32,000 bases of DNA from Glaciecola sp. UBA1851 (lineage in GTDB: Bacteria; Pseudomonadota; Gammaproteobacteria; Enterobacterales; Alteromonadaceae): NCBI GenBank assembly GCA_002338515.1, contig DDIL01000005.1:1-32000 (forward strand). The letters are read 5' to 3'. The notes under the pieces are model-generated. The model ran no database searches, was not told the origin of the DNA, and saw only the letters and a program-made list of their open reading frames with translations. The position numbers were made by a program, and so were the translations under genes. Shown piece after piece: positions 98 to 30,338 of the stretch. Numbering within the stretch: position 1 is the stretch's first letter; the number at the start of each line of letters is the position of its first letter.

Positions 98-211
98 ATG
101 TGGTATTTCACTTGGATATTAGGCGTTTTATTAGCGTGTTCATTCGGCATTATTAATGCGATGTGGCTCGAGTCTACAGAAGATATGGATAGAGCGGACG
201 AATCGCAATGA
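98..211 (+). CDS. cydX: cytochrome bd oxidase small subunit CydX (37 aa)
   Basis: Absent from the ORF track because it is too short. An aaggag Shine-Dalgarno sits at 86-91 and the ATG at 98. Translation is MWYFTWILGVLLACSFGIINAMWLESTEDMDRADESQ. The N-terminus matches E. coli CydX (MWYFAWILGTLLACSFG...). Stop tga 209-211 overlaps the cydD ATG at 208 (atga). Confidence 0.85.
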   Translation: MWYFTWILGVLLACSFGIINAMWLESTEDMDRADESQ

Positions 212-1818
212 ACACACATGCAACATCACCTGCTAGCGATGCCAATACATGGTTAACGCAACAGTCAAAGCAAGCTAGAGTGTCACAGCTGCAGGTGTTC
301 GTTGTTCGTTTAGCACAGCTTGCTGCTCAAATTAGTGCATTTTGGTTTTTGGCTTCCATTGTGCATCGCGTTGTGGTTCAGCAGCAAGCCGTCTTTTTCT
401 CAGAACTTTCCCCTCTTATTGTTGCCATGCTGTGTTGGGCGATCTTAGCTTACTTGCAAGATTGGATGGGTAATAGGATGAAGTCTATTCTAGAGCAGTC
501 GCTTGAAGACTCAATCCATCAACGATTAAAGTCAAATCAAGTTGCGCTAACTAGACGATTCTCAAGCACGTTTTGGCAGCAGCTTTTCTTAAACAATATT
601 AGCGATATCGGCGACTACTTAACCCAATATAGTGTGCAAAAATGGTTAGCCGGTATTGGTCCTGTTGTGGTGCTATTGGTTATTACCCCAATCAACTACG
701 TAGTGGCAATTGCACTGTTTGTCACTATGCCAGTAGTGCCACTTTTTATGATTTTAGTCGGTAAGGGTGCGGCGTCATTACATCGAAAGCACTTTGTTGC
801 CTTAGAAAGACTCGGCGATATGTTTTCTGACCGACTAAAAGCGTTATCTTTGATAACCGTTACTGGTCAACATCATAATCAAGTCAATCGATTGAGTGAT
901 GCGAGTGAAATTGTTAACCGTAAAACTATGCAAGTTGTATCAGTGGCGTTTTTATCTACTACGGTACTAGACTTTTTTGCAACCGTATCTATTGCCTTGG
1001 TAGCTGTCTTTATTGGCTTCACCATGTTAGGCGAGTTATCAATTGGCCCGCAAATTACTTTGCACTCTGGTTTGTTTATGCTCTTAGTATCCCCTTTACT
1101 ATTTTCTGAAATGCGAACTTTAGGGCGTTTTTATCACCAAAAATCAAAGGCTGAGGCTGCTGCACAGCGATTTGTTGACGTGTTTAAGAACGACTCTATT
1201 CAGCCGAAAAATTCGACATTCAATGGTATTGCTTGGCTCAATTTTAAAGTTTGTGAGCCATCCATTAAGGCGAAGCAATTATGTATTAATGAAAAAGATT
1301 GGATTTATCTTATTGGGCCATCGGGTAGCGGTAAAACGGTTTTACTTGAAGCACTATGTGGTTTTAGGCAAGCCAGTCATTCCTTAAGCGGCAATGTCGC
1401 CTTATTGAGTCAGCATGTTGCTTTACTTGATAAATCCTTGCGCAATAATTTAACGTTAGGGAAACTGAATTTATCGGATAGCCAGTTAATTCAATCGTTA
1501 GAGGAAGTTGGTTTAAATGAATGGTATACGCATTTAACCGAAGGCTTAGATGCTGAGCTTTCTGATTATCCAGCCCTTTCTGGCGGTGAAGCTCAACGTT
1601 TAGCACTGGCAAGAATACTACTTCATAATAAAGATATTGTGTTGTTAGACGAACCTACCGCCCATTTAACCGAGAAGCAGCATAACGATTTATCAAAACT
1701 CATTCACAAAAAATTGTATTCAAAAACGGTAATTTGGGCGTCTCATAAGCCTTTACCTAGTGACTGGTTTTGCCAGAGTTGGTTTATTAATTCTGGCGTG
1801 ATTGAGGTGACAAAATGA
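208..1818 (+). CDS. cydD: ABC transporter CydD (thiol reductant/heme exporter needed for cytochrome bd assembly)
   Basis: Hydrophobic N-terminal transmembrane half plus an ABC ATPase. Motifs: Walker A GPSGSGKT, signature LSGGEAQRLALAR, Walker B IVLLDEPT. It directly follows cydB-cydX and pairs with a second half-transporter through an ATGA overlap. Confidence 0.85.
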   Translation: MNTHATSPASDANTWLTQQSKQARVSQLQVFVVRLAQLAAQISAFWFLASIVHRVVVQQQAVFFSELSPLIVAMLCWAILAYLQDWMGNRMKSILEQSLEDSIHQRLKSNQVALTRRFSSTFWQQLFLNNISDIGDYLTQYSVQKWLAGIGPVVVLLVITPINYVVAIALFVTMPVVPLFMILVGKGAASLHRKHFVALERLGDMFSDRLKALSLITVTGQHHNQVNRLSDASEIVNRKTMQVVSVAFLSTTVLDFFATVSIALVAVFIGFTMLGELSIGPQITLHSGLFMLLVSPLLFSEMRTLGRFYHQKSKAEAAAQRFVDVFKNDSIQPKNSTFNGIAWLNFKVCEPSIKAKQLCINEKDWIYLIGPSGSGKTVLLEALCGFRQASHSLSGNVALLSQHVALLDKSLRNNLTLGKLNLSDSQLIQSLEEVGLNEWYTHLTEGLDAELSDYPALSGGEAQRLALARILLHNKDIVLLDEPTAHLTEKQHNDLSKLIHKKLYSKTVIWASHKPLPSDWFCQSWFINSGVIEVTK

Positions 1819-3413
1819 ACTCAGTAAAAAGGCAACCATCGGCCTTTAAACTCTTTGTAACCCTTGCTTTAGCCATTGTGCACTTGCTTGCTGGATTTTC
1901 AATTTTGTTGGTCTCATCTTGGTTCATTGCCGCTTGCAGTATTGCAGGTGTTGGTTTTAACTATATGCTTCCAGCTGTTGTAATAAGAGCGCTAGCCTTA
2001 ATTAGAATAAGCTCTGGCTATTTTTCTATGCTAGTTGGTCATTATCACTTGCTCTCTAATTTGGCGATGATTCGTTTAAATCTTTTTGCCAGTTTAGAAA
2101 ATAAGGTAACTGTTTCAAGACAGTCGTCGTTAGACGCACTTAATCATCAAAGTGAGGAAGTAGCGTCCATTTGGATTTCATGGGTAGGGCAAAACGCAGG
2201 GGCATTATTATCACTGGTTTGTCTAAATGTAATTAGCTTTATTTTTATCCCATCAATAAGCAACATTATTGTGTTGTTTAGTGGTGCTTTTGTCATTATT
2301 TACTGTGTTTTATTATGGTCAATGATTCAAAGTAGTAGCGAGTTGGTAAGTGCTAAAGAGGCGTTTCAATTTGATATGGTCAAACATATTGAATGCGCTT
2401 CTTTATGGCATTTATACCAAGAATACGATGTAAATCCTCCTCGATTACGTGTACTAATTGATTTAGAAAAAAAGTTAAAATTAAGAGTAAGACTGGCGGC
2501 ATTTAGTTTGTTTGTTGCTGCTATTGCGTGTATTTCCGTTATTTTTTCTTTATACAGTGCACCGCTCTTAGGAAATCCGATATTTGTGCTTATCCCAATA
2601 ACATTACTTAGCATTAACGATTGGTTGAGCCCAACTTTAAATAGTCTAAATCAGTTGTTGAAATTTAAAGAAGCAAAAAAAGCAATTGATTCAACAAGTA
2701 AAAATTTAAGCGTTCTAAAAACAAACCATGCAAGTATTTTAGGTTTTGAGCTTCGAAATTTTAGACCTTGCAACACAAGAATGAATGCAATCAATGCCCG
2801 TTTTAATTCTAGTGGGGCACATATTATTACTGGTGGTTCAGGGTCGGGTAAAAGTCGTTTTTTACAAGCTTTAATGGGGTTAATTCCTTTTGAAGGAAAC
2901 CGAGGTGTGCTTACATCGAATACAACAACTAACCTTCTTTCTACAACTAACAATACATTATTAACTGATTGCTTTTATGTTGAGCAGTTCCCTTATATTT
3001 TATCGGATACCTTGCGTAGTAACCTATTAATTGTGAACACGCAGGCAACCGAGAACCAGCTTATTCATTGTCTGAATTTGGTGGGCTTAGGTCATTTGAG
3101 AAATTTAGAAGAATGGCTAGGTGAAAATGGAAGACAACTTTCAGGTGGAGAGATGAAACGAATAGGATTAGCAAGAGCATTGCTATCAAAAAGTAGTGCA
3201 ATTTTAATAGATGAGCCATTTGAAGCTCTAGATCAAAGTAATATTCGTTTAGTTGTGAAATTATTAAATAAACTAGCGATGGAAAAAATAATTTTGGTGG
3301 CCACTCATATTATTCCCAAAGAGCTTAACATTGGGCAACGTGTTTCTTTAGACGATAACTTTTCCGATATACAAAGCAACACTTTATCCACAGGGGTATT
3401 AAAAAATGAATAA
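1815..3413 (+). CDS. cydC: ABC transporter CydC
   Basis: Transmembrane half plus an ABC ATPase. Motifs: Walker A GGSGSGKS, signature LSGGEMKRIGLAR, Walker B ILIDEPFEALD. ATGA overlap with cydD. Confidence 0.8.
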   Translation: MNSVKRQPSAFKLFVTLALAIVHLLAGFSILLVSSWFIAACSIAGVGFNYMLPAVVIRALALIRISSGYFSMLVGHYHLLSNLAMIRLNLFASLENKVTVSRQSSLDALNHQSEEVASIWISWVGQNAGALLSLVCLNVISFIFIPSISNIIVLFSGAFVIIYCVLLWSMIQSSSELVSAKEAFQFDMVKHIECASLWHLYQEYDVNPPRLRVLIDLEKKLKLRVRLAAFSLFVAAIACISVIFSLYSAPLLGNPIFVLIPITLLSINDWLSPTLNSLNQLLKFKEAKKAIDSTSKNLSVLKTNHASILGFELRNFRPCNTRMNAINARFNSSGAHIITGGSGSGKSRFLQALMGLIPFEGNRGVLTSNTTTNLLSTTNNTLLTDCFYVEQFPYILSDTLRSNLLIVNTQATENQLIHCLNLVGLGHLRNLEEWLGENGRQLSGGEMKRIGLARALLSKSSAILIDEPFEALDQSNIRLVVKLLNKLAMEKIILVATHIIPKELNIGQRVSLDDNFSDIQSNTLSTGVLKNE

Positions 3414-4278
3414 ATTAGGCGTGCGTCCATTTTTTGATAAAGAGACTCATACTGTTACTTATGTTGTAACAGACAATGCAAGTAAGCATGCTGCTGTTAT
3501 CGACCCGGTACTCAATTTCAACGCTAGTACAGGTGGCCTTTGTTCTTGTTCTGCAGACAAAATAATTGAGTATTTAGATGATAATAACTTGCAGCTTGAA
3601 TGGATATTAGAAACTCATGCGCATTCTGATCACTTAACGGCTTCAAAATATCTAAAGGAAAAACGTGGTGGACAAATAGGGATAGGCGAACATATTAAAA
3701 AAGTACAAAGTACGTTTAAAAAGACCTTCAATTATAATAGTGAGATGCCTTGTGATGGCAGCCAATTTGACCAATTGTTTGAAGATGGTGAAGTTATCTA
3801 TTTAGGTCATATAGCCATTGAAATTATGCATACTCCAGGTCACACCCCAGCATGTGTTAGCTATAAATTTGAAGATACAATATTTGTAGGAGACACCTTG
3901 TTTATGCCCGACTATGGAACGGCAAGAGCAGACTTTCCCAATGGAAGTGCTAGGTCACTGTATCAGTCAATTCAGCGTATTTTATCCTTACCTAATTCTA
4001 CAAGAATGTTTGTTGGTCACGACTATAAAACCAATACAAAACGAAATTATGCTTGGGAAACATCAGTACTTCAACAAAAGCGAAATAATATTCATTTAAA
4101 AGATGGTATGACGGAACAAGCGTTCATTAAACTGCGAAATGCTAAAGATGCCACGCTAGAGGTTCCCAAACTTTTAATGTCGGCTATGCAGGTAAATATT
4201 AGAGCAGGGTGTTTACCAGAAAAAGAAGATAATGGGGTCAGCTACTTAAAAATGCCATTAGTTTTAGAATTAAGTTAA
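3406..4278 (+). CDS. MBL-fold metallohydrolase, persulfide dioxygenase (ETHE1/Blh)-like
   Basis: HxHxDH metal motif (THAHSDH). N-terminal FFDKETHTVTYVV..AAVIDPV and GDTLFMPDYGTARADFPNGSARSLYQSI resemble persulfide dioxygenases. The ATG at 3406 overlaps the cydC stop (3411-3413). The next gene is a DUF442 protein, and the two are fused in Blh proteins. Confidence 0.65.
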   Translation: MNKLGVRPFFDKETHTVTYVVTDNASKHAAVIDPVLNFNASTGGLCSCSADKIIEYLDDNNLQLEWILETHAHSDHLTASKYLKEKRGGQIGIGEHIKKVQSTFKKTFNYNSEMPCDGSQFDQLFEDGEVIYLGHIAIEIMHTPGHTPACVSYKFEDTIFVGDTLFMPDYGTARADFPNGSARSLYQSIQRILSLPNSTRMFVGHDYKTNTKRNYAWETSVLQQKRNNIHLKDGMTEQAFIKLRNAKDATLEVPKLLMSAMQVNIRAGCLPEKEDNGVSYLKMPLVLELS

Positions 4279-4295
4279 AAAATAGGAGAGAAACC

Positions 4296-4706
4296 ATGAC
4301 GTTTGCATTAATTACTGATGAATTTTCAGTTTCAGGCGAGTTAACCGAGCAAGACTTTACTACTTTAAATAAGCTAGGCGTTTCTATGCTAATCAATGCT
4401 AGACCTGATAACGAAAATGATGGTCAGAAAAATGATGAAGATTTCAAAATATTGTGTGAAGCACATGGTATTGAATATGTACATGTACCCGTAAAGCCGG
4501 GTCAGTATTCACAAAATGATATTGAAAAAGTGGCAAACGCATTTAATGCGGCCAGTGGGAAAGTGCATGGGCTTTGTAAAACAGGCGCAAGAGCAGCGCA
4601 TTTATGGGCGCTCTCACAAAAAGAAGCGAAGTGTTTTGACGAACTACAGAAAAAAGCTCAAGCGCAAGGTTACGACTTAACTATGATTAAAAATCATTTT
4701 GAATAG
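4296..4706 (+). CDS. DUF442/TIGR01244-type phosphatase-fold (sulfurtransferase-like) protein
   Basis: 136 aa, with SVSGELTEQDF..L...GVSMLINARPDNE and a CX4R loop (HGLCKTGARAAHLWAL), typical of the DUF442 domain found in Blh proteins. An aggaga Shine-Dalgarno lies upstream. Confidence 0.65.
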   Translation: MTFALITDEFSVSGELTEQDFTTLNKLGVSMLINARPDNENDGQKNDEDFKILCEAHGIEYVHVPVKPGQYSQNDIEKVANAFNAASGKVHGLCKTGARAAHLWALSQKEAKCFDELQKKAQAQGYDLTMIKNHFE

Positions 4707-4709
4707 ACT

Positions 4710-5129
4710 ATGAAAAAACTAATTATTAGCTTGTTACTTTATGTTTCGTTTAGTGTTTTGGCCAATCAGAATGCTACTGAAATAGACAATAGAATAGTGA
4801 TTGAGTTAGAGCAGGAGCAAAAAGTGTTTGTTCTCTTACGTATGCGAAAAATGCTTGAAACTCTCACTAAAATGCAGGTTAAGTTACTTGAAGAAAACCT
4901 AGAGGCAACTCATGACCTAGCGTTAGAATTAATGAGGTTCACCGCTAAAAATCATCCCGATGGGCTAAGAGAGAGGATGCCTTTGCCGTTTCGAGCGATG
5001 AGTCAGTCTATGAACAAAAGCTGGAAAAAATTAAGTAAAAAGCAAACCAATAGCAAGGTTATTCAGCAAGAAATCATTAGCATCATGTCTACTTGTAATG
5101 CTTGTCATCAATCTTATAGAATTGAGTAA
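4710..5129 (+). CDS. periplasmic class II c-type cytochrome (cytochrome c-prime/c556-like)
   Basis: Signal peptide MKKLIISLLLYVSFSVLANQ. About 120 mature residues that look helical. A single CXXCH heme motif (CNACH) lies 9 residues from the C-terminus, which is the class II cytochrome c arrangement. Confidence 0.55.
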   Translation: MKKLIISLLLYVSFSVLANQNATEIDNRIVIELEQEQKVFVLLRMRKMLETLTKMQVKLLEENLEATHDLALELMRFTAKNHPDGLRERMPLPFRAMSQSMNKSWKKLSKKQTNSKVIQQEIISIMSTCNACHQSYRIE

Positions 5130-5131
5130 TA

Positions 5132-5434
5132 ATGAATATAAAAGAGTTTGAAGTTCAAAATGATAGTGCATTAATAAGCTTAAAAGCAATGGCGAATAAA
5201 TACAGATTGGGTATCTTATATTTATTAACCGAGCGTGATCAAAGCGTAAACGATTTAGCTTTGACTCTAGAATTACCGCAGCCGGTGGTGTCCCAACACC
5301 TTAAAGTATTGAAGGCTGCTGATATGGTATGTTTCACTAAAGACGGTGCGCAGCATAGTTATCGATTAGATAAAAAACAACTTGTCATGTCAGCCATGAT
5401 TTTCAAATTGTTTAACATAGAAACAGTCATTTAA
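5132..5434 (+). CDS. ArsR/SmtB-family winged-helix transcriptional regulator
   Basis: 100 aa. KALANKYRLGILYLL...SVNDLA..LELPQPVVSQHLKVLKAADMV is the ArsR HTH signature. Its ATG lies 2 nt after the preceding stop. Confidence 0.8.
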   Translation: MNIKEFEVQNDSALISLKAMANKYRLGILYLLTERDQSVNDLALTLELPQPVVSQHLKVLKAADMVCFTKDGAQHSYRLDKKQLVMSAMIFKLFNIETVI

Positions 5435-5535
5435 ACTGCACTTGGCCTTCTAATAAATGCAAGGAATAATGGCGTATGGTGTAGTTGGTTCATATTTTGC
5501 TAATGGTTGTATATCTAAACAACTTACTGAAAAAT

Positions 5536-6435
5536 ATGATGAGAAATATTATTCTTTTTGGCGCGGGTGCAGGCTCCAAAAATTATGTGCAGGCATGCAA
5601 AGACAATATCTTAGCGATTGCTGATAACAACTCAGGCAGAGTAGGCGAAACGATAGACAGTATCCCTATTATTGCGCCAAGTAGTATTGGTAATTATGCG
5701 TTTGATAATATTGTGATTACTTCGCAATGGGCTGAGGATATTAAGCTTCAACTTGTCAATGAGCTAGGCATACCAATAAGTGATATTGAGGTGCCTGCTA
5801 AGTTTGAGCTTAAAGGAAAAGCCCCAGCTTTTTCGGACCCTGCCACTCTGGAATTAGCGAACAATATATTAAAATCATTGTGTGATAGTGCATATAAAAA
5901 CAGTATCGAACTCTACATTGACTTCGGTACTTTGCTAGGTGTAGCGCGAGATAATACAGTGATGCCATGGGATGATGACATTGATTTTGCTATCACTAAA
6001 GTACCAGACCAAACCTTTCTTAATTGGCTTACTCAATGGCGAACCAGCCATCATTTACCCGTTACATTCGAGGTAGAAACCCGCAAAGATAAACATGACG
6101 ACTTTATTGATTTTGTCCTGAAATTTAGTCACCCCGATTATCAATCATTTCTGACAACTATATGCTACCGGAAAGAAGTGGACGGTCAGTCTTTGCATAT
6201 GCCGAGTTTAGGGCAATGGTTTGCCCCTCAAGTACATTTTTCTTCGCCTGACTATATTGAATGGCAGGGAATTAATGTCCAAGTACCTCATGATTACGAG
6301 AATTATCTTGAGTTTGTTTACGGTGATTGGAAAACACCGAAAAAGAACATGAGCATGACCGATTACGCGAATTTAAACGAATTAAACCACGAAGATGTAA
6401 CCGCTATGGGGATGGTTAGTGAAACAATTAAATAG
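5536..6435 (+). CDS. LicD-family phospho(no)-headgroup transferase with an N-terminal Rossmann-like extension
   Basis: [24 protein letters not shown] matches the LicD motif (G.LLG..R......PWDDD.D). I prefer the ATG-ATG at 5536 over the track's TTG start at 5485. The first ~95 aa ([13 protein letters not shown]...IAD....G..I..IP) resemble NeuD/PglD-type N-domains. Confidence 0.7.
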
Positions 6436-7732
6436 ACAAAATGAAAAGTTAGTTTATGTTGGAATGAGCGCTGACTTAGTGCATCCAGGACATATGAATA
6501 TTTTGAAAGTGGCTGCCGATTATGGTGATTTAGTGGTGGGTTTATTGACCGACAAAGCCATTGCATCATACAAACGATTACCCTATATGGCTTTTGAACA
6601 GCGCAAAGAAGTGATAGAAAATATTAAAGGCGTAACGCAAGTAATTGCCCAAGATACGCTTGATTATCGTCCGAATTTAGAAGCGGTGAAACCAGATTAT
6701 GTTGTGCATGGAGATGATTGGAAAACAGGGGTACAGGCGAAAACGCGGCAACAAGTATTAGATGTTTTAGCGCAATGGGGAGGCGAACTGATAGAACCCT
6801 CTTATACTCACGGTATTTCATCTTCTGCATTGAACCAATCACTAAAAGAAATTGGCACCACGCCTGATATTCGAAGGGGTAGACTAAAGCGTTTAATTCA
6901 AGCTAAGCCTATTGTCAGGATCATGGAATCTCATAATGCACTAAGTGGACTAATTGTTGAAAATGTAAAAGCGGATAATGGTGTTGAATTTGACGGTATG
7001 TGGAGTAGTTCGCTTACCGATTCTACATCAAAAGGTAAACCAGACATTGAAGCGGTAGATGTGAGTTCGCGTATGACTACCGTTAATGAAATTTTTGAAG
7101 TCACCACCAAACCTATGATTTATGACGCTGATACAGGTGGTATTCCAGAACACTTTGCCTTTACCGTTAGAACCCTTGAGCGTACAGGCATTAGTGCTGT
7201 TATTATTGAAGACAAAACCGGATTAAAGAAAAACTCTTTGTTTGGTAATGATGTGGCGCAAACTCAAGATACAATAGAAGGATTTTCTTTAAAAATTGCC
7301 ACAGGCAAAAAAGCGCAAGTGACGAAAGACTTTATGATTATTGCCCGCATTGAAAGTTTAATTCTTGATAAAGGATTAGATGATGCGATTGCCAGAGCAT
7401 TTGCATATATAAAGGCTGGAGCGGATGGCATAATGATCCACTCTCGACAATCGTCCCCAGATGAAATTATTGCGTTTTGTGAACAAATTCGAGCAGAGCA
7501 CACCGATATTCCAATTATTGTTGTACCCACTTCTTTTAATCAAATTACTGCCAAAGAATTAAGTGAAGTAGGTGTAAACGTTGTTATTTATGCCAATCAT
7601 ATGCTTCGCGCAGCCTATCCTGGGATGATGAATGTTGCCCAATCAATTCTTAGTCACGACAGAAGCTTTGAAGCGGAACATCAGTTATTATCTATAAAAG
7701 AAATACTCAATTTGATACCGGGTACTAAATAA
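6419..7732 (+). CDS. pepM: bifunctional phosphonate cytidylyltransferase (PntC-like) / phosphoenolpyruvate mutase
   Basis: The N-terminal ~140 aa have the cytidylyltransferase fold, with [16 protein letters not shown] (HxGH at 6482-6493). The C-terminal ~290 aa belong to the PEP mutase/isocitrate lyase superfamily and carry the PEP-mutase-specific EDKX5NS motif ([10 protein letters not shown], 7208-7237). GTG start at 6419; the first in-frame ATG (6464) would remove the first beta-strand. Confidence 0.85.
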
Positions 7733-8802
7733 TGGCACTGAATACTCAGTCTTTTATTCAATCACTTATTCGTGAAGGCTATACGCATTTGTGTGTTGTG
7801 CCTTGTAGTTTTGCTAAATATGTCATCAATGCAGCTATTAATTCACCGCACATAACCTATATGCCCTGTGCTAGCGAGGCTATTGCTTGCTCAAGCGCGG
7901 CAGGACTAAAAATAGCCGGTAAAAAACCGATTGTTATTGTGCAATCATCGGGCATGACTAATATGGGTTCATGTATCACTAGTTTATTAAAGCCATACCA
8001 TGTTTACTTTCCTATTCTAACTAGCTGGCGTACTTACAAAGAAGGCGATAGCGAGGTACAACATGCTCATCTTGCTACTTGTTTGCCTGAACTCATAAAC
8101 GCTTATGGTTATGAACATTCATTGCTAGATAAACAAGATGAAGTAAAAGCAATAGAGCAAATTAATCAAGCAGATGTATCACCTAGTATCATCATTATGA
8201 GTAGTGGAAGCTTTAGTGAAGTACAATTAGAAGAGAAACATAAAAACGACTTGTCAGAATACCTACCTAGAAGTCAATTTCTTACCCTGCTCAACAAAGG
8301 CTATAGTCACGAACATACTGTCATGGTGGGCACAACCGGCAATACCGCTCGCGAGATGTATCAGTTTATGCCAAACACAAATAACTTATACATGGCAGGT
8401 AACATGGGCGGTGCATTAAGTTTGGGTTTAGGTATAGCGTTAGCGGGTAAACCAGTTGTAGTATGTGGCGGTGATGCTGAATTTGTAATGCATATGGGTG
8501 GCATGACAACTGCAGGTCGCTATGCTGAAAATATGCAATTAATTTATATATTGTTTGATAATGAAGCCAATAAATCTACCGGTGGTCAAAACACATATCA
8601 ATCACATGTTAATTACAGCGGTATTGCCGAGTCATCGGGTTTCCAGTGTATTGAAAATACTATTAAAACAACAGCTGAATTTGAATTGTGCATGAAAGAA
8701 GTGAAAGATAAAACAGGCTTATATTTTATGCATATTAAATGTAGTTATGATGCGGAAACGCCTCGCCCACCAGTTGAAGTGGTTACCGCTTTACCATTAT
8801 GA
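7732..8802 (+). CDS. ppd: phosphonopyruvate decarboxylase (ThDP-dependent)
   Basis: 356 aa. The N-terminus (F...L...GYTHLCVVPCSFAK) and the ThDP motif (GGDAEFVMHMGG...LFDNEANKSTGGQ) are typical of Ppd/AepY. Its ATG shares one nucleotide with the pepM stop. Confidence 0.8.
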   Translation: MALNTQSFIQSLIREGYTHLCVVPCSFAKYVINAAINSPHITYMPCASEAIACSSAAGLKIAGKKPIVIVQSSGMTNMGSCITSLLKPYHVYFPILTSWRTYKEGDSEVQHAHLATCLPELINAYGYEHSLLDKQDEVKAIEQINQADVSPSIIIMSSGSFSEVQLEEKHKNDLSEYLPRSQFLTLLNKGYSHEHTVMVGTTGNTAREMYQFMPNTNNLYMAGNMGGALSLGLGIALAGKPVVVCGGDAEFVMHMGGMTTAGRYAENMQLIYILFDNEANKSTGGQNTYQSHVNYSGIAESSGFQCIENTIKTTAEFELCMKEVKDKTGLYFMHIKCSYDAETPRPPVEVVTALPL

Positions 8803-9884
8803 ATAACGAATTTACTTATTGGCAACCTACAAAAATACAGTTTACCCATAATTGGTTAACAGCGCTTATTCCCCTTGTTAAAAATAGGCGCGTTTTATTG
8901 GTTACCTCAAAAGGTTTTGTTACGCGTGGTATTGTAGAGACGATAACGAGCAATATTCCAAGCGTAAGTTATGTGTGTGATAACATTGTTTCTCATCCTG
9001 AATTAAAGGATTTACAGAAAGCGTATAAAGACGCGCACGTTTATAAATATGACTGCATTATTGCAATAGGTGGCGGCAGTGTATTAGACGCCGCTAAATT
9101 TTTAAGTGTAATAATAAGTAATGCAGAGGGTAAATCAGCTATAGATTCAGTCACGCGTTTAGTAAAAGACTCAACTAGCGTTAGCGGTTACGCTACCTTA
9201 CCTATTATTGCTATTCCAACAACATCTGGTACGGGTAGTGAGGTAACGCCGTGGGCGACTATTTGGGATAGTGAAATAAAAAAGAAATATTCGCTGCATT
9301 TACCCACGTTATTTAGTGAAGCTGCTATTTACGACCCCAATTTAACCATCAGTTTACCGATAGATATTACGCGACAAACTGCACTAGATACACTTTCTCA
9401 TGCCCTTGAGTCAATATGGAATAAACATGCAACGCCCATCACTGTGCAGCATGCTATTACTGCTGCGCAATTAATTTATAAGCATTTACCTAGCTTATTG
9501 TTTGAGCCAACTAACCTTGCATTACGTGAACAAATAATGCTGGCGACTATGCATGCTGGCATGGCGTTTTCACAAACACAAACCGCTATGGCTCATGCAC
9601 TTTCATATTACATTACTGCAAATAAAGGTATACCTCATGGTATAGCCTGCAGCTTTACCTTGCCTATGTTAATAGATGAAGTAATTGGTCAATATGATTT
9701 TGTAGATAATGCATTAAAGGCTATTTTTACAGAGCTTTCTTCTGACCCACTTCGTGAGATGTATAAATCAATTGGACTATTAACTGAGTTTTCTGACTAT
9801 GGGTTGTCTGATTCTGAGGTAGTCAATTTAATTGAATCGGTTAATAACCAACCGCGCGCAAAAAATTCGTTAGTTTCACTTTAA
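8799..9884 (+). CDS. group III iron-dependent alcohol dehydrogenase, probable phosphonoacetaldehyde reductase (PhpC/FomC-like)
   Basis: GGGSVLDAAK, PTTSGTGSEVT and His-rich metal ligands (HALESIW, HAGMAF, MAHALSY). ATGA overlap with ppd. Its position after pepM-ppd matches 2-hydroxyethylphosphonate pathways. Confidence 0.7.
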   Translation: MNNEFTYWQPTKIQFTHNWLTALIPLVKNRRVLLVTSKGFVTRGIVETITSNIPSVSYVCDNIVSHPELKDLQKAYKDAHVYKYDCIIAIGGGSVLDAAKFLSVIISNAEGKSAIDSVTRLVKDSTSVSGYATLPIIAIPTTSGTGSEVTPWATIWDSEIKKKYSLHLPTLFSEAAIYDPNLTISLPIDITRQTALDTLSHALESIWNKHATPITVQHAITAAQLIYKHLPSLLFEPTNLALREQIMLATMHAGMAFSQTQTAMAHALSYYITANKGIPHGIACSFTLPMLIDEVIGQYDFVDNALKAIFTELSSDPLREMYKSIGLLTEFSDYGLSDSEVVNLIESVNNQPRAKNSLVSL

Positions 9885-9946
9885 GGTGTGTTGCTCTTTT
9901 CTCGCTGTGGAAACAGCAAAGTAAAGGGTGAGTAATAAGGAATGGC

Positions 9947-14240: not shown

Positions 14241-17200
14241 TAGCATTTTTTGCCAAACACCCCACTGCCGCAAACTTATTGATGGCAATTATTATTATTT
14301 TAGGCCTAACCGCATTACCTGATATCAAGCGTGAAACTTTCCCTGACTTTCAAGCGAAAACTGTGCAAATTACTATTGTGTATCCAGGAGCGACACCTGC
14401 CGAAGCATCAAGCGCGCTTTGTTTGCCTATTGAAGATGCAATTGATGGCCTTGACCAACTAGACGAGCTTACGTGCGAAGCAAGAGAAAACATCGCCATT
14501 GCCACGGTTGATATGCAAGAAGGTGGGAATATAGATAAATTAGTGGCAGAAGTAAAAAATGAAATAGATGCTATTGATAGTTTCCCTGATGGCATTGAAC
14601 TACCTATTGTAGAAGAGAAGGGCAGAACAGATGAAGTGATTCATCTAGCTATTCAGTCAGATATAAATGAAGTTGAATTAAAAGAATATGCCGAAACAAT
14701 TAAAGACAAATTAAAAAGGATAGATGGCGTAGCAAATATAGAAGTTGGCGGTTTTTCAGATCATCAACTGCGAGTTAACTTATCGCTATCAAAGCTTAGA
14801 GAATATGGTTTAACTACACAAGATGTAGCTGAGTCACTGGCCAATCAAAATTTAAAAATGCCAGGAGGGAATTTAGAAGGTAATGATAAAACTGTGCTGT
14901 TACGTTTTGATCAACAGCGAGTCACTGCTAACTTGTTAGAAGAGTTAGTTATATTTGGCGGTGCGGATGGCGGGCAAATTAAACTGAAAGAATTAGGTTT
15001 TGTTGAAGATAGGTTTGAAGATGAAGAGGTGCACATACGTTTTAACGGTAAACGTGCGGCTTTATTGAAAATTAGTAAAAGCAAAGCTGAAGATGCCATT
15101 GATATTGCCACCGAAGTCATGCAATTTGTTGATAAAGAAAAAGCCATGTTACCCTCTGGCATAAGCATGACTTTAACAAATAACACCTCCACCATTATTC
15201 AAGATAGATTAAGCATGTTGTTAACTAATGGTGCGCAAGGAATATTGTTGGTATTTGCGGTAATGTGGCTATTCTTTTCATATCGTTATGCCTTTTGGGT
15301 ATCAATGGGATTACCGGTTTCGTTTTTAGGAACACTATTTTTAATCTCGATTTTGGGCATTAGCATTAACATGATTTCGATGGTGGCGATGTTAATGGCA
15401 ATTGGCATTTTAATGGACGACGCCATTGTGATTGCTGAAAGTATCGCTACCCAAGTCGCTAAAAATGGCGATGTAGATAAGGGTGCTATAGATGGCGTAA
15501 AGTTGGTGCTTCCCGGTGTTGTATCATCATTCCTAACAACTTGCGCTATTTTTGGTGGAATGGCTTTTATATCAGGTGATATCGGGCAAGTGTTAAAAGT
15601 TATTCCTATGGTATTGCTGCTTACATTAAGTGTGTCTTTAATTGAAGCTTTTCTGATTTTACCTAATCATTTAGTGCATTCATTACACAAACATAAAGAA
15701 ACTAATGAAACGGGGTTTAAGCTCAAGTTTACGCAAAAATTTGAAACATTCAGAGATGTATATTTGGTGAATGTCGTAGAAAAAGTAGTAACATATCGTT
15801 ACGCGTTTTTAGGAGGTTTATTTGTCGCATTTTTATTAAGCTTATCGCTATTTGTTGGTGGCTTATTGAAGTTTAAAGCCTTCCCCAATACAGAAGGTGA
15901 CATACTCGAAGCACGCTTAATACTTGCGTCGGGTACACCATTTGATAAAACGCAAATTGTAGTGAAACAAATTACTGAGGCAGCCAATACACTTAATCGT
16001 GAATTCTCCAAGCAAGAGCCTGATAACCAAAGTTTAATAAAAAATATAACGGTTGAATATAATCAAAATAGGGATGCATTCTCGCAAGGCGCTCATTTAG
16101 CGACGGTAAGAATGGAACTTCAAACCGTTGAAGACCGCATAACTAGTATTTATGACGTGCACAAACGCTGGCAAGAATTAGTCGGATCTATGCCTTCTAT
16201 CGTGTCTTTATCTATAACAGAGCCGAGTATTGGACCAGCAGGTAGGGCAATTGAAATTCGTTTAAGTGGCGTTAATGTAGACCAACTGATGCAGCATGCA
16301 TTAGCGATTAAAAGCGAGCTAAATCAATATCAAGGTGTAAATAATCTATTGCTTGATACGCGCGAGGGCAAAGAAGAGCTAATCATATCAATGAAACCCG
16401 GCGCACTTTCATTTCAAGTGAATGGTAGCATCATTGCTAATCAATTGCGCGGCGCATATAACGGTATAAAAGTAGATGATATACAAAGAGGGAGTGAGCA
16501 AATTGAATTAGATGTGCGACTTCAAGATGCCGATAAACTCAATATCAATCAGTTAAATAATTTTCCTATTATTTTACCCGATGGTACCGAGATACCCCTG
16601 TCGGCTGTCGCTAAAATTCAACAAGAGCGCGGAGTATCGAGAATTAATAGAATAGAAGGGCAGCCAACCGTTACTATTATTGGCGATGTTGACCCATTGC
16701 TAGCAAATACTGCTGAAGTGCTTGCAGATATAGACCAAAATTTTATTCAACCCTTGCTACAACAGCAACCTAATTTACAGGTTAAGTTTGAAGGTGAAGC
16801 CGAAGAAGGGAACAAAACATCCGCATCAATAGGGCAGAAGTTTCTGTTAGGTTTAGTCGGTATTTTTATTATTCTAAGCTATCAGTTTAAAAGCTACTTT
16901 GAGCCTGTCATGGTAATGACCGCCATACCACTTGCACTTATAGGCGTATTGTGGGGCCATTTTCTTTTAGGTTTTGACATGACTATGCCAAGCATTGTGG
17001 GCTTTATATCGTTAGCTGGGATAGTGGTAAATGATTCTATTTTATTGGTGGTATTTATTAAGCAACACATGCAAGAAGGAATGGATGCCCATAAAGCAGC
17101 TGTTATGGCAGCAAAAGAACGCTTTAGAGCTGTATTTATTACAAGCGCTACAACCATAGCTGGCACTTTTCCACTGCTACTAGAAACAAGCACTCAAGCA

Positions 17201-17353
17201 CAAGTATTGCAGCCTTTAGTGGTCAGTTTAATATTTGGGATTATTGCATCCACATGCTTAATACTATTTCTACTCCCCGCGCTTTATGTGATTTTACAAG
17301 ACTTTGGATTAGCGAGTAATGCGCATATGCAGGAACCTGACACTTTTGATTAA
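14237..17353 (+). CDS. RND efflux permease (AcrB/AcrD/AcrF family)
   Basis: 1038 aa with a duplicated architecture of two large periplasmic loops and twelve hydrophobic segments. The start (FFAKHPTAANLLM) and the SMGLPVSF...MIAMLMAIGILMDDAIV region are typical of the family. Confidence 0.9.
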   Translation: MIAFFAKHPTAANLLMAIIIILGLTALPDIKRETFPDFQAKTVQITIVYPGATPAEASSALCLPIEDAIDGLDQLDELTCEARENIAIATVDMQEGGNIDKLVAEVKNEIDAIDSFPDGIELPIVEEKGRTDEVIHLAIQSDINEVELKEYAETIKDKLKRIDGVANIEVGGFSDHQLRVNLSLSKLREYGLTTQDVAESLANQNLKMPGGNLEGNDKTVLLRFDQQRVTANLLEELVIFGGADGGQIKLKELGFVEDRFEDEEVHIRFNGKRAALLKISKSKAEDAIDIATEVMQFVDKEKAMLPSGISMTLTNNTSTIIQDRLSMLLTNGAQGILLVFAVMWLFFSYRYAFWVSMGLPVSFLGTLFLISILGISINMISMVAMLMAIGILMDDAIVIAESIATQVAKNGDVDKGAIDGVKLVLPGVVSSFLTTCAIFGGMAFISGDIGQVLKVIPMVLLLTLSVSLIEAFLILPNHLVHSLHKHKETNETGFKLKFTQKFETFRDVYLVNVVEKVVTYRYAFLGGLFVAFLLSLSLFVGGLLKFKAFPNTEGDILEARLILASGTPFDKTQIVVKQITEAANTLNREFSKQEPDNQSLIKNITVEYNQNRDAFSQGAHLATVRMELQTVEDRITSIYDVHKRWQELVGSMPSIVSLSITEPSIGPAGRAIEIRLSGVNVDQLMQHALAIKSELNQYQGVNNLLLDTREGKEELIISMKPGALSFQVNGSIIANQLRGAYNGIKVDDIQRGSEQIELDVRLQDADKLNINQLNNFPIILPDGTEIPLSAVAKIQQERGVSRINRIEGQPTVTIIGDVDPLLANTAEVLADIDQNFIQPLLQQQPNLQVKFEGEAEEGNKTSASIGQKFLLGLVGIFIILSYQFKSYFEPVMVMTAIPLALIGVLWGHFLLGFDMTMPSIVGFISLAGIVVNDSILLVVFIKQHMQEGMDAHKAAVMAAKERFRAVFITSATTIAGTFPLLLETSTQAQVLQPLVVSLIFGIIASTCLILFLLPALYVILQDFGLASNAHMQEPDTFD

Positions 17354-17630
17354 TTTTTAACTGTACGAAAATTACATAACCACTATTTGAAACTGCCATC
17401 AAACACTATTTATGTGTTTATTTTCATGCACAATAGTTTGTTAAATAATTGTTTTTTTGATTGTTAAAAATACATATATATTTAATAAAATTCTAATCAT
17501 ATGTTTTTATTGATTTTTTTAATTTAAAACAAAATTTAGTAGATTTAAAACTTAAAAAAAATATAAATTTATGGGGTTATTTCCTTCATTTAGCTTGTAA
17601 AGGACCATAACAAATGTTAATAATATGTAA

Positions 17631-17644
17631 TGTAAGCGCTACCA
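17631..17644. promoter_or_regulatory. LacI-family (XylR-like) operator, copy 1 upstream of the TonB-dependent receptor
   Basis: TGTAAGCGCTACCA, a 14-bp near-palindrome with a CGCT/AGCG core. It is part of a 19-bp unit (aatgtaagcgctaccattt) that repeats 21 bp downstream. Confidence 0.55.
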
Positions 17645-17651
17645 TTTTAAA

Positions 17652-17665
17652 TGTAAGCGCTACCA
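17652..17665. promoter_or_regulatory. LacI-family (XylR-like) operator, copy 2 upstream of the TonB-dependent receptor
   Basis: Identical TGTAAGCGCTACCA, offset by exactly 21 bp (two helical turns) from copy 1. Confidence 0.55.
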
Positions 17666-17924
17666 TTTGTTAAAAAACATAAGTTTTAAACGCGGTTTCG
17701 CAATGAATCTATATATAAATTAACGTTATATTTACATTGTAAAAAAGCTAAGTGTTTGAGTCGGGTAAAATTTGAAATTTCGAGTTGTGATCAATGTGTA
17801 CATTCGACATTTCATGCGATCGAGAACTAAAAAGAATAATCAATTATTAAATTATTATGTGTTATCGGTTCTTGGTATTTTCAAAAATTAACACACATGT
17901 AGAACACACGTTAAAGGAAGTCGA

Positions 17925-20906: not shown

Positions 20907-20925
20907 ACATCCCCTTCTCAAATTT

Positions 20926-20970
20926 AGCTGTAGGTGCTATGTTTATGGTATCTACAGCTTGTTTGTTTTT
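20926..20970 (+). terminator. possible leaky intrinsic terminator/attenuator between the receptor and the halogenase-fold genes
   Basis: An 8-bp stem, agctgtag (20926-20933) pairing with ctacagct (20952-20959), followed by tgtttgttttt. The 18-nt loop is long, so the structure is weak. Confidence 0.3.
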
Positions 20971-21008
20971 GGCGGCGTAATTACCTAAGAGTCTATTTTA
21001 AAGAGTGT

Positions 21009-24167: not shown

Positions 24168-24175
24168 TTATATTT

Positions 24176-25738: not shown

Positions 25739-25953
25739 CCTGAACTCGGGATAAGCAAACCCGTCCAGCAGCGCTATTAGAGCGAATAATTGCGTTACCA
25801 AACTAAGCAATAGAATAACTTTAATTGACTTTACCGCCTTGTTCTTCACTTTAATACAATCACTGAATTATGATATTAATTTGCTTATCTCGAATTGAGG
25901 TTAAATTATACCATTAGTATTGTTTTAGAATTAAAGAGGATATTACACCGTGC

Positions 25954-27039: not shown

Positions 27040-27127
27040 ATAGCCCCCCTGAGAGCTTTTTAATTGAGGCTATTGGAATTCAATAGCACCTCATTATTGT
27101 TCTGATATTATCTATTTCGATGTAAAA

Positions 27128-27141
27128 TGTAAACGCTTACA
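27128..27141. promoter_or_regulatory. LacI-family (XylR-like) operator in the divergent GH5/GH10 intergenic region
   Basis: TGTAAACGCTTACA, 87 bp upstream of the GH5 start codon and 372 bp upstream of the GH10 start codon. Confidence 0.5.
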
Positions 27142-27512
27142 TTTATTTTTTAATATTCACAAGTTATTTACAATTAAGTGTGTTAAATAACCATTTTACT
27201 GGCATGAAATTTTGTAGTTCCGTGTATTATTTTAGGTATTCACATTATGATTTTTGATTTAAGTGTTGTTTGAATACCCAATATAATTCGTGATTTAACG
27301 AGTGGATCCAACATGTTTAATATACATTTTCGTATTTAAGTATATGAAATAAATAACTATTTATTTAGATTTTGTTTTATTGAAGTAGTGGTGTCTTTTC
27401 TAAATAGGCAGCGATTGGCTTCATTTTATAATCATAAATACAGTTAACAAATTCCTCATCTATAGCTAATATCCATTAAATGTTAAATTAGTGTGGTTTT
27501 TGAAGGTCTGAA

Positions 27513-28652: not shown

Positions 28653-28688
28653 CAGCATTCTTTATTCTTATTTTTGGATTATATACTA

Positions 28689-30323: not shown

Positions 30324-30338
30324 TATTTAGTTATAAGA

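Follow-up and report, generated by a model that had tools for sequence, protein, structure and literature searches.

The four co-directional genes at positions 5536-9884 (+ strand) of the window, by which we mean the whole 32 kb stretch of DNA analysed, encode enzymes that are all of known types, and the identities of these genes are clear from sequence and fold. On balance, and with confidence only a little better than even, we favour the reading that they make up a module, self-contained and horizontally mobile, that puts 2-hydroxyethylphosphonate (HEP) on a glycan, likely a nonulosonic-acid glycan, and that the window holds an orphan copy of it.

An ORF check of the window gave a LicD-family transferase (5536-6435; 299 aa, with an N-terminal C2185-like_N domain and a C-terminal LicD/FKRP-like domain), a bifunctional HEP cytidylyltransferase/PEP mutase (PepM) fusion (6419-7732; 437 aa, GTG start), a phosphonopyruvate decarboxylase of the ThDP enzyme type (7732-8802; 356 aa) and a phosphonate-type iron alcohol dehydrogenase (Fe-ADH; 8799-9884; 361 aa). 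All four reading frames are intact, every catalytic motif is kept, and transmembrane segments were predicted in none of the four proteins. The junctions are translationally coupled: direct reading of the sequence showed that the LicD gene and the fusion, which begins with GTG, overlap by 17 nt (6419-6435) and that decarboxylase and dehydrogenase overlap at an ATGA (8799-8802), and the TAA of the fusion shares one base with the ATG of the decarboxylase (nt 7732), as the first-pass annotation of this DNA had described. The four enzyme identities it proposed were upheld by an HMM domain check, in which the profile matches of all four proteins were far beyond chance. The 17-nt overlap, in which the LicD stop (TAG, 6433-6435) lies 3' of the fusion start, depends on GTG-6419; as no other in-frame start precedes the first beta-strand of the cytidylyltransferase, and the alignment of that domain to Fom1 begins at residue 9, the overlap is well supported. 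For the LicD gene, a start at ATG 5536/5539 agrees with the N-termini of 40 homologues ('MK.KTLLFGAG'); a longer ORF from TTG-5485 does not match them and was rejected. ArsR and the first cassette gene are separated by 101 nt, and a promoter-like site there (TTGGCC-17-AATAAT, 5442-5470, + strand; 9/12 matches) is a weak candidate promoter only, since our scan found fewer such sites in the window than in shuffled sequence.

The fusion comprises a cytidylyltransferase domain (residues 9-145, nt 6443-6853; CTP_transf_like, PF01467, 52.5 bits) and a PepM domain (residues 156-436, nt 6884-7726; PEP_mutase, PF13714, 194 bits). Judged by its profile scores, the latter is a true PepM, because it reaches 410 bits against TIGR02320, exceeding the cutoff of 319.55, scores far lower against the rival families carboxy-PEP mutase (58 bits) and methylisocitrate lyase (102 bits), and keeps the EDKX5NS motif; the first-pass annotation had named grouping with either rival family as the outcome that would overturn its assignment. 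The 10-residue motif of PepM spans nt 7208-7237, and the domain matches structures 5UNC and 1M1B with E about 1e-42. The HPGH and THGISSS motifs were also found in the fusion, whose cytidylyltransferase domain shares 63.5% identity with that of Fom1 (PDB 5X3D; 87/137 residues, E = 1e-58). The earlier description of the cytidylyl activation as 'PntC-type' therefore has to be abandoned, as PntC enzymes are LicC-like PF12804 proteins (PMC6697681). For the Fom1 domain, HEP is the reported substrate and CMP-HEP the product, as relayed in a passage of PMC6697681 citing Cho 2017, and a Fom1-type rather than a PntC-type domain strengthens the HEP reading. Fusion relatives carry the database name 'PEP phosphomutase / 2-hydroxyethylphosphonate cytidylyltransferase'. 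PF01467 cytidylyltransferase-PepM fusions occur in 2-aminoethylphosphonate (AEP)-type clusters too (PMC8942020), so HEP specificity would rest on the similarity to Fom1 together with an ever-present dehydrogenase.

That dehydrogenase matched both Fe-ADH and ADH_Fe_C, contains a GGGS motif, and has TIGR03405 (Phn_Fe-ADH) as its best match, at 357 bits twice the score of the next family and under the cutoff of 423.7. It is predicted to reduce phosphonoacetaldehyde to HEP, and it accompanies the fusion and decarboxylase in every complete related cassette, wherever the contig allows a view. The decarboxylase matched the N and C domains of ThDP enzymes (TPP_enzyme_N and TPP_enzyme_C); its best NCBIfam match, TIGR03297, scores 198 bits, under the 312.5 cutoff, its nearest PDB entry is 9IZ3, putative phosphonopyruvate decarboxylase subunits, and it is 62-65% identical to its counterparts in Campylobacterota cassettes.

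A profile search matched the LicD-family protein to PF04991 (LicD) with 46 bits (cutoff 22.6), the match spanning just the first 65 of the profile's 227 positions, and precomputed annotation of the same gene lists PF22674 and PF04991. Roughly residues 3-93 (nt 5542-5814) make up the C2185-like_N domain, which is Rossmann-like. Further along, at nt 5968-5985, is a W145-DDD-x-D150 motif whose D146, D147, D148 and D150 are invariant across 41 homologues. The best Foldseek matches for its AlphaFold model (pLDDT 93.5) are the FKRP catalytic domain and 2G6T, while its sole NCBIfam match, the glycolipid cholinephosphotransferase Mf1, scores 58.6 bits, far under the cutoff of 225. We predict a soluble, cytoplasmic transferase that takes the HEP-phosphonyl group of CMP-HEP and places it on a sugar hydroxyl. 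A soluble protein of this kind is also compatible with acting on lipid-linked or nucleotide-linked intermediates.

Taken in order, the PepM domain would convert PEP to phosphonopyruvate, and the decarboxylase would convert this to phosphonoacetaldehyde, pulling the unfavourable mutase equilibrium forward. The Fe-ADH would then reduce phosphonoacetaldehyde to HEP, and the Fom1-type domain fused to PepM would join HEP and CMP as CMP-HEP, the phosphonate counterpart of a CDP-alcohol. Finally, with the LicD/FKRP-like transferase, a sugar hydroxyl would attack the phosphonate phosphorus, releasing CMP and forming a phosphonate monoester. We infer the first four steps from close homology to families with reported activities, whereas the transfer step is suggested by family membership. 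The family and fold matches are consistent with this route, which the first-pass annotation had drawn as far as cytidylyl activation and LicD-type transfer.

At least 29 of the loci we retrieved (25 species-representative loci and four further ones, L001, L002/L003, L120 and L121) have these four genes side by side, in one of two orders; the loci span Alteromonadales, Rheinheimera, Nitrincola, Campylobacterota and Bacillota. They thus behave as a unit, and the cassette is widespread rather than rare or unusual. Twenty species-representative cassette loci have flanks of 8 kb or more on each side. NeuB, a CMP-NulO synthetase, PseB/PseC, Maf or flagellin was encoded within 10 kb in 15 of them; the other five were without those markers, and two of these had only KpsC/KpsS-like Capsule_synth neighbours. 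The cassette adjoins Maf, flagellin or FleQ in Alteromonas, Paraglaciecola, Brumicola, Nitrincola, Lysinibacillus and Aliarcobacter butzleri, as exemplified by PseB-PseC-PseF-NeuB-...-LicD-fusion-Ppd-ADH-Maf-flagellin-flagellin in A. butzleri (L121) and Maf-fusion-Ppd-ADH-LicD-CMP-NulO synthetase-NeuB ... flagellin-FleQ in Alteromonas mediterranea (L002). Members of the LicD subfamily that occur without pepM are also found in nonulosonic-acid/Maf/flagellin islands, in 18 of 23 loci.

As the cassette in relatives usually lies among genes for nonulosonic (sialic-acid-like) acids, often with flagellin genes alongside, neighbourhoods in these other organisms make a nonulosonic-acid glycan of the pseudaminic or legionaminic type the most likely acceptor, probably on flagellin and, in many lineages, as the flagellin O-glycan. 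The first-pass annotation had left the acceptor unknown; comparison of the cassette neighbourhoods in relatives narrows the field. Our literature search found no paper linking HEP or pepM to nonulosonic-acid flagellin glycans, and the link between cassette and flagellin looks unreported. It is testable and points to a likely target of phosphonate decoration.

Less probable, though a serious contender, is the same biosynthesis directed to another envelope polymer or lipid, such as LPS/LOS core, O-antigen, capsule, exopolysaccharide or a glycolipid; this keeps the acceptor as open as the first-pass annotation had left it. Flagellar and nonulosonic-acid genes are absent around the window copy, KpsC/KpsS-like Capsule_synth genes directly follow LicD in six loci (L001, L017, L018, L021, L024 and L027), and O-antigen-type sugar genes occur at L004. 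Some Aliarcobacter loci also carry FdtA, a hexapeptide acetyltransferase and DegT, typical of O-antigen or capsule sugars, so the nonulosonic-acid glycan there need not be flagellar. Work cited in PMC8942020 reports HEP esters on actinobacterial exopolysaccharide, and the sub-cutoff Mf1 match would suit a glycolipid. Against this stand the Maf, flagellin or FleQ genes beside the cassette in the six lineages named above, and the absence of a membrane anchor from the LicD-like protein. Flagellin O-glycans are built in the cytoplasm, which a soluble transferase fits.

The window copy itself is an orphan. Upstream is a CydX/CydDC-MBL-BLH_phosphatase-cytochrome c'-like-ArsR operon and downstream, encoded on the minus strand, a 7TMR-DISM GGDEF protein, bearing out the earlier placement of the cassette outside a polysaccharide or LPS locus. 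Domain searches found no glycan, flagellar or later phosphonate-tailoring genes anywhere in the 32 kb, in line with the first-pass annotation, which had seen no tailoring genes in the cassette, and no nonulosonic-acid, Maf or flagellin genes in the 5.5 kb upstream or 22 kb downstream; the acceptor would thus have to be encoded elsewhere in the genome. In neighbour-joining trees, built without bootstrap support, all four proteins branch with the Campylobacterota clade, and the named top matches of the fusion, at 79-83% identity, are all Campylobacterota; flanking AcrB is nearest Pseudoalteromonas and Aliiglaciecola (58-59%). These comparisons suggest that the copy shares ancestry with the Campylobacterota version in an uncultured host that looks like an Alteromonadales-like marine gammaproteobacterium. 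It is unlikely that the copy is stranded, silent or decaying, without an acceptor and yielding at most free HEP or CMP-HEP. Its position outside any glycan locus would fit such a fate. So would the differences between the window and a Tara Oceans contig from the same population: 16 of the 20 lie within the cassette, and the codon changes divide about evenly into synonymous (9) and non-synonymous (8) ones. However, frames, coupled junctions and catalytic motifs are all preserved, independent assemblies show the same arrangement, the GC and GC3 of the cassette agree with those of the host, which points to long residence, and a second orphan with intact genes lies between SbcCD and unrelated genes in Glaciecola sp. 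KUL10 (L025).

We consider it very improbable that the product is AEP or another C2 phosphonate, with the dehydrogenase in a different role and a transaminase encoded elsewhere. Among surface phosphonates AEP clearly predominates, with 56% of neighbourhoods, PF01467-PepM fusions occur in AEP clusters as well (PMC8942020), and the dehydrogenase falls under the TIGR03405 cutoff; however, no aminotransferase was found in or beside the window cassette, the Fe-ADH is conserved in every complete cassette, and the cytidylyltransferase closely resembles the HEP-specific Fom1 domain. The start of a diffusible phosphonate natural product (fosfomycin-like, with transient CMP-HEP) or of methylphosphonate synthesis can be dismissed almost entirely: fusion, decarboxylase and dehydrogenase do correspond to Fom1, Fom2 and FomC (PMC6697681), but the 32 kb lack a Fom3-like radical SAM methyltransferase, FomD, an epoxidase, an HEPD/MpnS-type oxygenase, an ATP-grasp enzyme and a peptide ligase, the operon has a LicD transferase instead, and relatives' cassettes lie in glycan islands.

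With the early fosfomycin steps of Streptomyces (Fom1-Fom2-FomC), the favoured HEP-glycan module shares three enzyme types, the domain fusion and the predicted intermediate CMP-HEP, and its PepM part matches solved PepMs. In that pathway CMP-HEP is a transient handle for radical SAM methylation; here there is no Fom3, FomD or Fom4, and the fusion is translationally coupled to a LicD-type transferase, so we read the cytidylyl group as a leaving group for glycan transfer. LicD of Streptococcus and Haemophilus and FKRP/fukutin transfer a phospho-alcohol from a CDP-alcohol donor. The cassette transferase resembles them in its LicD Pfam match and invariant acidic DxD-type motif, and its modelled nucleotidyltransferase fold superposes on the FKRP catalytic domain; it differs in having only 15-18% sequence identity to FKRP, in its predicted CMP-phosphonate donor, and in an N-terminal Rossmann-like domain that resembles 2G6T and 3NKL rather than the FKRP stem domain.

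Pnt pathways with PntC and LicD-like transferases are described from Treponema denticola, Olsenella uli and Atopobium rimae (Rice et al. 2019, PMC6697681). They too combine PepM and decarboxylase with a branch-point enzyme, cytidylyl activation and LicD-like phosphonate transfer to a surface glycan, and the cassette has the nucleotidyltransferase-PepM fusion seen in about 60% of PepMs. Pnt pathways make AEP via a transaminase, and their cytidylyltransferase is LicC-like (PF12804); the cassette, by contrast, is predicted to make HEP via Fe-ADH and uses a PF01467 Fom1-type domain, and its LicD bears the extra C2185-like N-terminal domain. HEP made by PepM, decarboxylase and Fe-ADH and esterified to polysaccharide is itself a known system, according to passages of PMC8942020, PMC9381506 and PMC8931226. 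The cassette would share that chemistry but lacks MpnS, differs in organism type and transferase, and in relatives accompanies nonulosonic-acid/flagellin glycosylation rather than exopolysaccharide. Campylobacter, Aeromonas and Shewanella have islands for flagellin glycosylation that involve Maf and pseudaminic or legionaminic acid. Relatives' cassettes sit in just such a setting, between pse genes, maf and flagellin genes, whereas the window has no flagellar or nonulosonic-acid gene. There is experimental precedent for a phosphonate on flagellin in the type A glycan of C. difficile (PMC8861647), which carries 2-AEP on GlcNAc in an organism without pepM, in contrast to the PepM-encoding cassette and its predicted HEP.

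The cassette comprises four co-directional genes at window 5536-9884, an arrangement that the first-pass annotation had described together with its junctions and that can be read directly from the sequence. ORF calls on the plus strand place a LicD-like transferase at 5536-6435, a cytidylyltransferase-PEP mutase (PepM) fusion at 6419-7732, a phosphonopyruvate decarboxylase at 7732-8802, and an iron-type alcohol dehydrogenase (Fe-ADH) at 8799-9884. The fusion gene opens with a GTG at 6419, 17 nt ahead of the end of the upstream TAG; its own TAA and the ATG of the decarboxylase have base 7732 in common, and the decarboxylase and Fe-ADH genes overlap in an ATGA at 8799-8802. An ATG start at 5536/5539 for the LicD-like gene agrees with the N-termini of 40 homologues, which a TTG at 5485 does not, and GTG-6419 is the sole in-frame start that retains the first strand of the cytidylyltransferase fold. 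No transmembrane-type hydrophobic segment was found in any of the four proteins. Antisense ORFs within the cassette (7264-7530, minus strand) were taken as spurious.

Sequence and fold together establish the identities of the four genes, beginning with the mutase. That this domain is a PEP mutase and not a carboxy-PEP mutase or methylisocitrate lyase, as first proposed, is borne out by the NCBIfam equivalog TIGR02320 (PEP mutase), which matches the fusion at 410.2 bits, above its cutoff of 319.55 and ahead of the sister families compared, phosphonopyruvate hydrolase among them (157, 102 and 58 bits, with methylisocitrate lyase at 102 and carboxy-PEP mutase at 58). The EDKXXXXXNS motif, described as PepM-specific (PMC6697681), is present at fusion residues 264-273, and the mutase is coupled to a phosphonopyruvate-consuming enzyme, the decarboxylase gene overlapping the fusion gene by 1 nt.

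The nucleotide-activating domain had initially been labelled PntC-type, and this label did not hold. PntC proper belongs to the LicC-like PF12804 family (Rice et al., PMC6697681). In the Pfam scan the fusion matched PEP_mutase and, N-terminal to it, CTP_transf_like (PF01467; 52.5 bits, cutoff 21), with no match to PF12804 (the MobA-type NTP transferase fold), so the fold is not that of PntC. As Fom1-type we counted PF01467 domains at the N-terminus of a PepM that carry HxGH and RTxGISTT-like nucleotide-binding motifs; the fusion has HPGH at residue 22 and THGISSS at residue 130. Its residues 9-145 align with the cytidylyltransferase domain of Streptomyces Fom1 (PDB 5X3D) at E = 1.2e-58, with 87 of 137 positions identical. 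The Fom1 domain moves CMP from CTP onto 2-hydroxyethylphosphonate (HEP) to give CMP-HEP, according to the account of Cho et al. 2017 in PMC6697681, and 23.6% of all PepMs are fused to the PF01467 family (PMC6697681). The domain in the window would thus work like PntC yet stand outside the PntC family, as a close relative of a reported HEP cytidylyltransferase. JGI names the closest fusion homologues 'phosphoenolpyruvate phosphomutase / 2-hydroxyethylphosphonate cytidylyltransferase'. Because the domain is Fom1-type, the JGI naming specifies HEP, and a phosphonate-type Fe-ADH is always present, HEP rather than 2-aminoethylphosphonate (AEP) is the expected headgroup; from homology and the invariable Fe-ADH we infer that the domain uses HEP and CTP to form CMP-HEP.

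The two remaining steps are assigned to proteins that score under their equivalog cutoffs. Both thiamine diphosphate (ThDP)-binding domains of the decarboxylase were found (PF02776 and PF02775, Pfam), and its cofactor motif, GDA-X27-N at residue 247, conforms to the GD(G/A)...N pattern. It scores 197.8 bits against TIGR03297, under the equivalog cutoff of 312.5, with that family nevertheless ranking first and sulfopyruvate decarboxylase trailing by more than 100 bits. The protein falls in a divergent clade common to Campylobacterota (62-65% identity), and we assign it as a phosphonopyruvate decarboxylase on best hit and context. The dehydrogenase has the Fe-ADH fold (PF00465 and PF25137) with a GGGS nucleotide motif at residue 91. 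Its top family is the phosphonate-associated TIGR03405 (PhpC/FomC), at 357.4 bits under an equivalog cutoff of 423.7, a score twice that of the runner-up (177 bits).

LicD (PF04991) matches the first cassette gene at 46 bits (cutoff 22.6), covering profile positions 3-65 of 227 only. The acidic motif W-DDD-x-D is invariant at D146, D147, D148 and D150 in 41 sequences, and a structure model built from 41 homologues reached a pLDDT of 93.5. The top Foldseek matches of the C-terminal domain are catalytic-domain chains of FKRP (E = 6e-8, ~180 aligned columns), a CDP-ribitol-dependent phosphotransferase, and the N-terminal Rossmann-like domain resembles 2G6T and 3NKL. Pfam, the modelled fold and the DDDxD motif support a place for the protein within the LicD/FKRP superfamily. 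Its own family, of ~300 residues, returned 474 clusters at 90% identity in our search; at 50% identity, 213 clusters reached E of 1e-30 or better. Every member combines a C2185-like domain at the N-terminus with a LicD domain behind it. By analogy with FKRP, the enzyme is predicted to use CMP-HEP as donor, passing its phosphonyl group to a hydroxyl and releasing CMP. A lipid acceptor was considered on the strength of an NCBIfam match, Mf1, and rejected: the match is weak (58.6 bits, cutoff 225), and none of the loci has a lipid-synthesis neighbour. Several LicD-subfamily proteins are of double length, namely P0371 (595 aa) and P0421, P0427, P0441, P0455, P0461 and P0469 (about 540-630 aa); in one such member two stretches were matched, suggesting either tandem duplication or an additional fused domain.

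With the PntC label corrected, these family assignments support the route outlined at first pass, from PepM through decarboxylase and Fe-ADH to cytidylyl activation and LicD-type transfer. Judged by close homology to families of reported activity, the PepM domain would convert PEP to phosphonopyruvate, the decarboxylase would yield phosphonoacetaldehyde, the Fe-ADH would reduce this to HEP, and the Fom1-type domain would form CMP-HEP. Up to this point we consider the route very probable. Family membership suggests that the LicD-like enzyme would then place the HEP-phosphonyl group on a sugar hydroxyl, and such transfer to a glycan seems likely.

Upstream of the cassette, at window 98-5434, lies an operon of overlapping or near-abutting genes (CydX-CydD-CydC-metallo-beta-lactamase (MBL)-BLH_phosphatase-cytochrome c'-like-ArsR); downstream lies a 7TMR-DISM/GGDEF protein on the minus strand, followed by a TetR-RND efflux set, a TonB-dependent receptor, three tandem Trp-halogenase-family genes, GH5, GH10 and GH43 genes and an MFS_2 transporter. 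The domain scan thus agrees with the original placement of the cassette outside any obvious polysaccharide or LPS locus, between the ArsR operon and the GGDEF gene. Genes for glycan assembly, nonulosonic acid (NulO) synthesis, flagella or later phosphonate tailoring were absent from the 32 kb, as specifically were a NeuB-type synthase, CMP-NulO synthetase, Maf and flagellin. The window copy is therefore not part of a flagellin/NulO island, and any link to such islands would run through cassette homology only. The 24 window ORFs of at least 100 aa contain no Fom3/Fom4/FomD domain and no HEPD/MpnS-type oxygenase domain, in keeping with the earlier statement that no later tailoring genes accompany the cassette, and a fosfomycin-like or methylphosphonate product was rejected for want of these genes. 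ArsR, immediately upstream, was rejected as a cassette regulator: homologues of ArsR, cytochrome c', MBL and GGDEF stand beside none of the other cassettes, and since ArsR starts 2 nt past the gene before it, it is part of the upstream operon. An Rfam scan of the whole window returned no match and a tRNA scan none, so we see no riboswitch and no tRNA-linked island boundary.

Several further features of the window were recorded. Distant relatives of the upstream operon keep CydDC-MBL-(TauE-like permease)-BLH_phosphatase and have no cytochrome c'-like or ArsR gene. The region at 17925-31961 resembles a polysaccharide-utilisation block, with GH5 on the minus strand and a GH43 bearing a beta-xylosidase C-domain, and probably serves xylan use. 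GC content falls to ~0.30-0.31 at 17001-18000 and 27001-28000. A 15-nt direct repeat, TGAGTAATAA(T/G)GAAT, matching at 14 of 15 positions, occurs at 5123-5137, across the cytochrome c' stop and ArsR start, and at 9929-9943, in the 62-nt gap after the dehydrogenase; the copies are 4806 nt apart and enclose ArsR and the cassette. Such a pair arose in one of 400 shuffles of both boundary regions, in a post hoc test that leaves room for chance.

The cassette and its flanks differ in affinity. Neighbour-joining trees put each of the four window proteins at the base of the Campylobacterota clade and not among Alteromonadales. Identities to Campylobacterota and Alteromonadales versions, respectively, are 80-83% and 65-71% for the fusion, 62-65% and about 25% for the decarboxylase, and 49-57% and 35-41% for the dehydrogenase. 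The best named matches of the flanking AcrB are Pseudoalteromonas and Aliiglaciecola (58-59%). We therefore read the host as an uncultured marine gammaproteobacterium of Alteromonadales-like affinity, carrying a cassette that has common ancestry with the Campylobacterota type. In GC and GC3 the cassette is the same as the host genes, so transfer was not recent and is deduced from the phylogenetic mismatch only. We did not find an empty insertion site by synteny: metagenome relatives of the upstream MBL, at no more than 64% identity, are too distant, and show CydDC-MBL-TauE-like-BLH_phosphatase with neither ArsR nor cassette, and the locus of the nearest AcrB relative (L088, 74% identity) has TetR-MFP-AcrB alone in common with the window. 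The window locus is also present in a Tara Oceans assembly (contig L087), which differs from window 320-9349 at 20 of 9029 positions, too few for dN/dS; members of this population are found in Tara sample SAMEA2591077 and in SRR5321253. The cassette contains sixteen of these differences, a density of about 0.4% compared with about 0.08% upstream, and 9 synonymous and 8 non-synonymous codon changes were counted, a pattern that suggests locally higher diversity or relaxed constraint.

All four cassette genes were found contiguous in at least 29 fetched loci (25 species-representative loci plus L001, L120, L121 and L002, of which L003 is a duplicate). These came from the neighbourhoods of LicD homologues and of the closest fusion homologues, from species-representative genomes scanned with the LicD alignment, and from marker searches. 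Carriers span Alteromonadaceae, Rheinheimera, Arsukibacterium, Nitrincola, Campylobacterota and Bacillota; the gene order is fusion-Ppd-ADH-LicD (Ppd, the decarboxylase) in Alteromonadales and LicD-fusion-Ppd-ADH in Campylobacterota and the window. As a genomic object the window cassette belongs, as an ordinary case, to a widespread and already annotated module, and the greater novelty lies in what its relatives show by comparison. Twenty cassette loci had 8 kb or more of flank on each side, and in 15 of them NeuB, CMP-nonulosonate synthetase, PseB/PseC, Maf or flagellin occurred within 10 kb; the same markers lie near 18 of 23 LicD-subfamily loci without pepM. Two loci stand out as clearest. 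The Aliarcobacter butzleri locus (L121) reads PseB-PseC-CMP-NulO synthetase-NeuB-PseG-like-...-methyltransferase-ATP-grasp-LicD-fusion-Ppd-ADH-Maf-flagellin-flagellin, and that of Alteromonas mediterranea (L002) Maf-fusion-Ppd-ADH-LicD-CMP-NulO synthetase-NeuB-epimerase ... flagellin-FleQ; both are flagellin glycosylation islands. Some cassette loci have KpsC/KpsS-like or O-antigen-type sugar genes only, the cassette of Glaciecola sp. KUL10 is an orphan, and given these exceptions the association is best put as nonulosonic-acid glycoconjugate loci, often flagellar.

Related genes show further variation. Glaciecola sp. KUL10 carries a second orphan cassette (L025, 6338-10885), between SbcCD and unrelated housekeeping genes, and a further LicD-subfamily gene on another contig (L054). 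No pepM lies close to the genes of a sister clade of the LicD subfamily (L029, L033-L038, L042-L044, L049 and L059; for example L034, 9995-10912). Its LicD gene adjoins NeuB (gap 0-3 nt) in islands with flagellin, CMP-NulO synthetase and PseB/PseC; in L034 it is followed by ATP-grasp and HAD genes, and CMP-NulO synthetase is the only cytidylyltransferase seen within ~6 kb. The C2185-like_N domain, at window 5542-5814 in the LicD-like protein, also fronts GT2 and GT4 glycosyltransferases and a methyltransferase in the same islands (L001, 12136-13362; L004, 16281-17387; L120, 16229-17191 and 17204-18775), and these enzymes may use it in common to recognise one substrate or partner. An acyl-activation set of AMP-binding enzyme, small carrier protein and SDR lies beside the cassette in Alteromonadales and Campylobacterota (L001, 3797-6153; L004, 7673-10004; L046, 6717-9000; L022, 1807-6293, where LuxE- and LuxC-like genes are added). 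This set, missing from the window, probably acylates the NulO.

Neighbourhoods in other organisms, the sole source for this step, suggest that the acceptor could be a NulO glycan, often on flagellin; for a NulO or flagellin acceptor we would put the chances at a little under even. Flagellin glycosylation is cytoplasmic (PMC4065374) and therefore fits a soluble LicD-like transferase. More tentatively still, the four genes could form a portable 'phosphonylation kit' that esterifies HEP onto pseudaminic/legionaminic-acid flagellin O-glycans, and perhaps other NulO glycoconjugates, in marine Alteromonadales and Campylobacterota. Were this so, it would be a flagellin modification absent from any literature we found, marine heterotrophs would gain a defined glycoprotein source for the HEP esters of oceanic high-molecular-weight dissolved organic phosphorus, and the window orphan would show the kit working unlinked from an island.

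A large part of the dissolved organic phosphorus in the sea consists of polysaccharide esters of HEP and methylphosphonate, which feed aerobic methane production; the organisms that make them and the molecules that carry HEP remain poorly defined (PMC9381506, PMC8931226). Acker et al. put forward cell-surface glycoproteins bearing phosphonate and named none. As predicted from its genes, the cassette gives a marine heterotroph the whole route to an HEP ester in compact form; it points to the LicD subfamily as a candidate HEP transferase, of which the literature found describes none, and its relatives give a tractable candidate carrier in the NulO glycan of flagellin. A non-hydrolysable anionic phosphonate on the filament could influence phage or grazer recognition and immune detection. 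Among open-access papers and bioRxiv preprints we found none that ties HEP or pepM to flagellin or NulO, an absence that is not proof.

Of catalogued pepM neighbourhoods, 8.5% are HEP-type, and products have been isolated for only two of the ten HEP-type gene-cluster families (PMC8942020). Polysaccharide-bound HEP esters are reported from actinobacteria and marine dissolved organic matter, in work cited in PMC8942020 and PMC9381506. The one precedent for a flagellin-glycan phosphonate comes from C. difficile, whose type A glycan carries 2-AEP (PMC8861647) and which has no pepM. In the published general scheme, surface decoration starts with PepM and decarboxylase, goes on through a branch enzyme and cytidylyl activation, and ends with a LicD-like transferase (PMC6697681); the window cassette follows this scheme with a Fom1-type activating domain, PF01467 and not the PF12804 of PntC.
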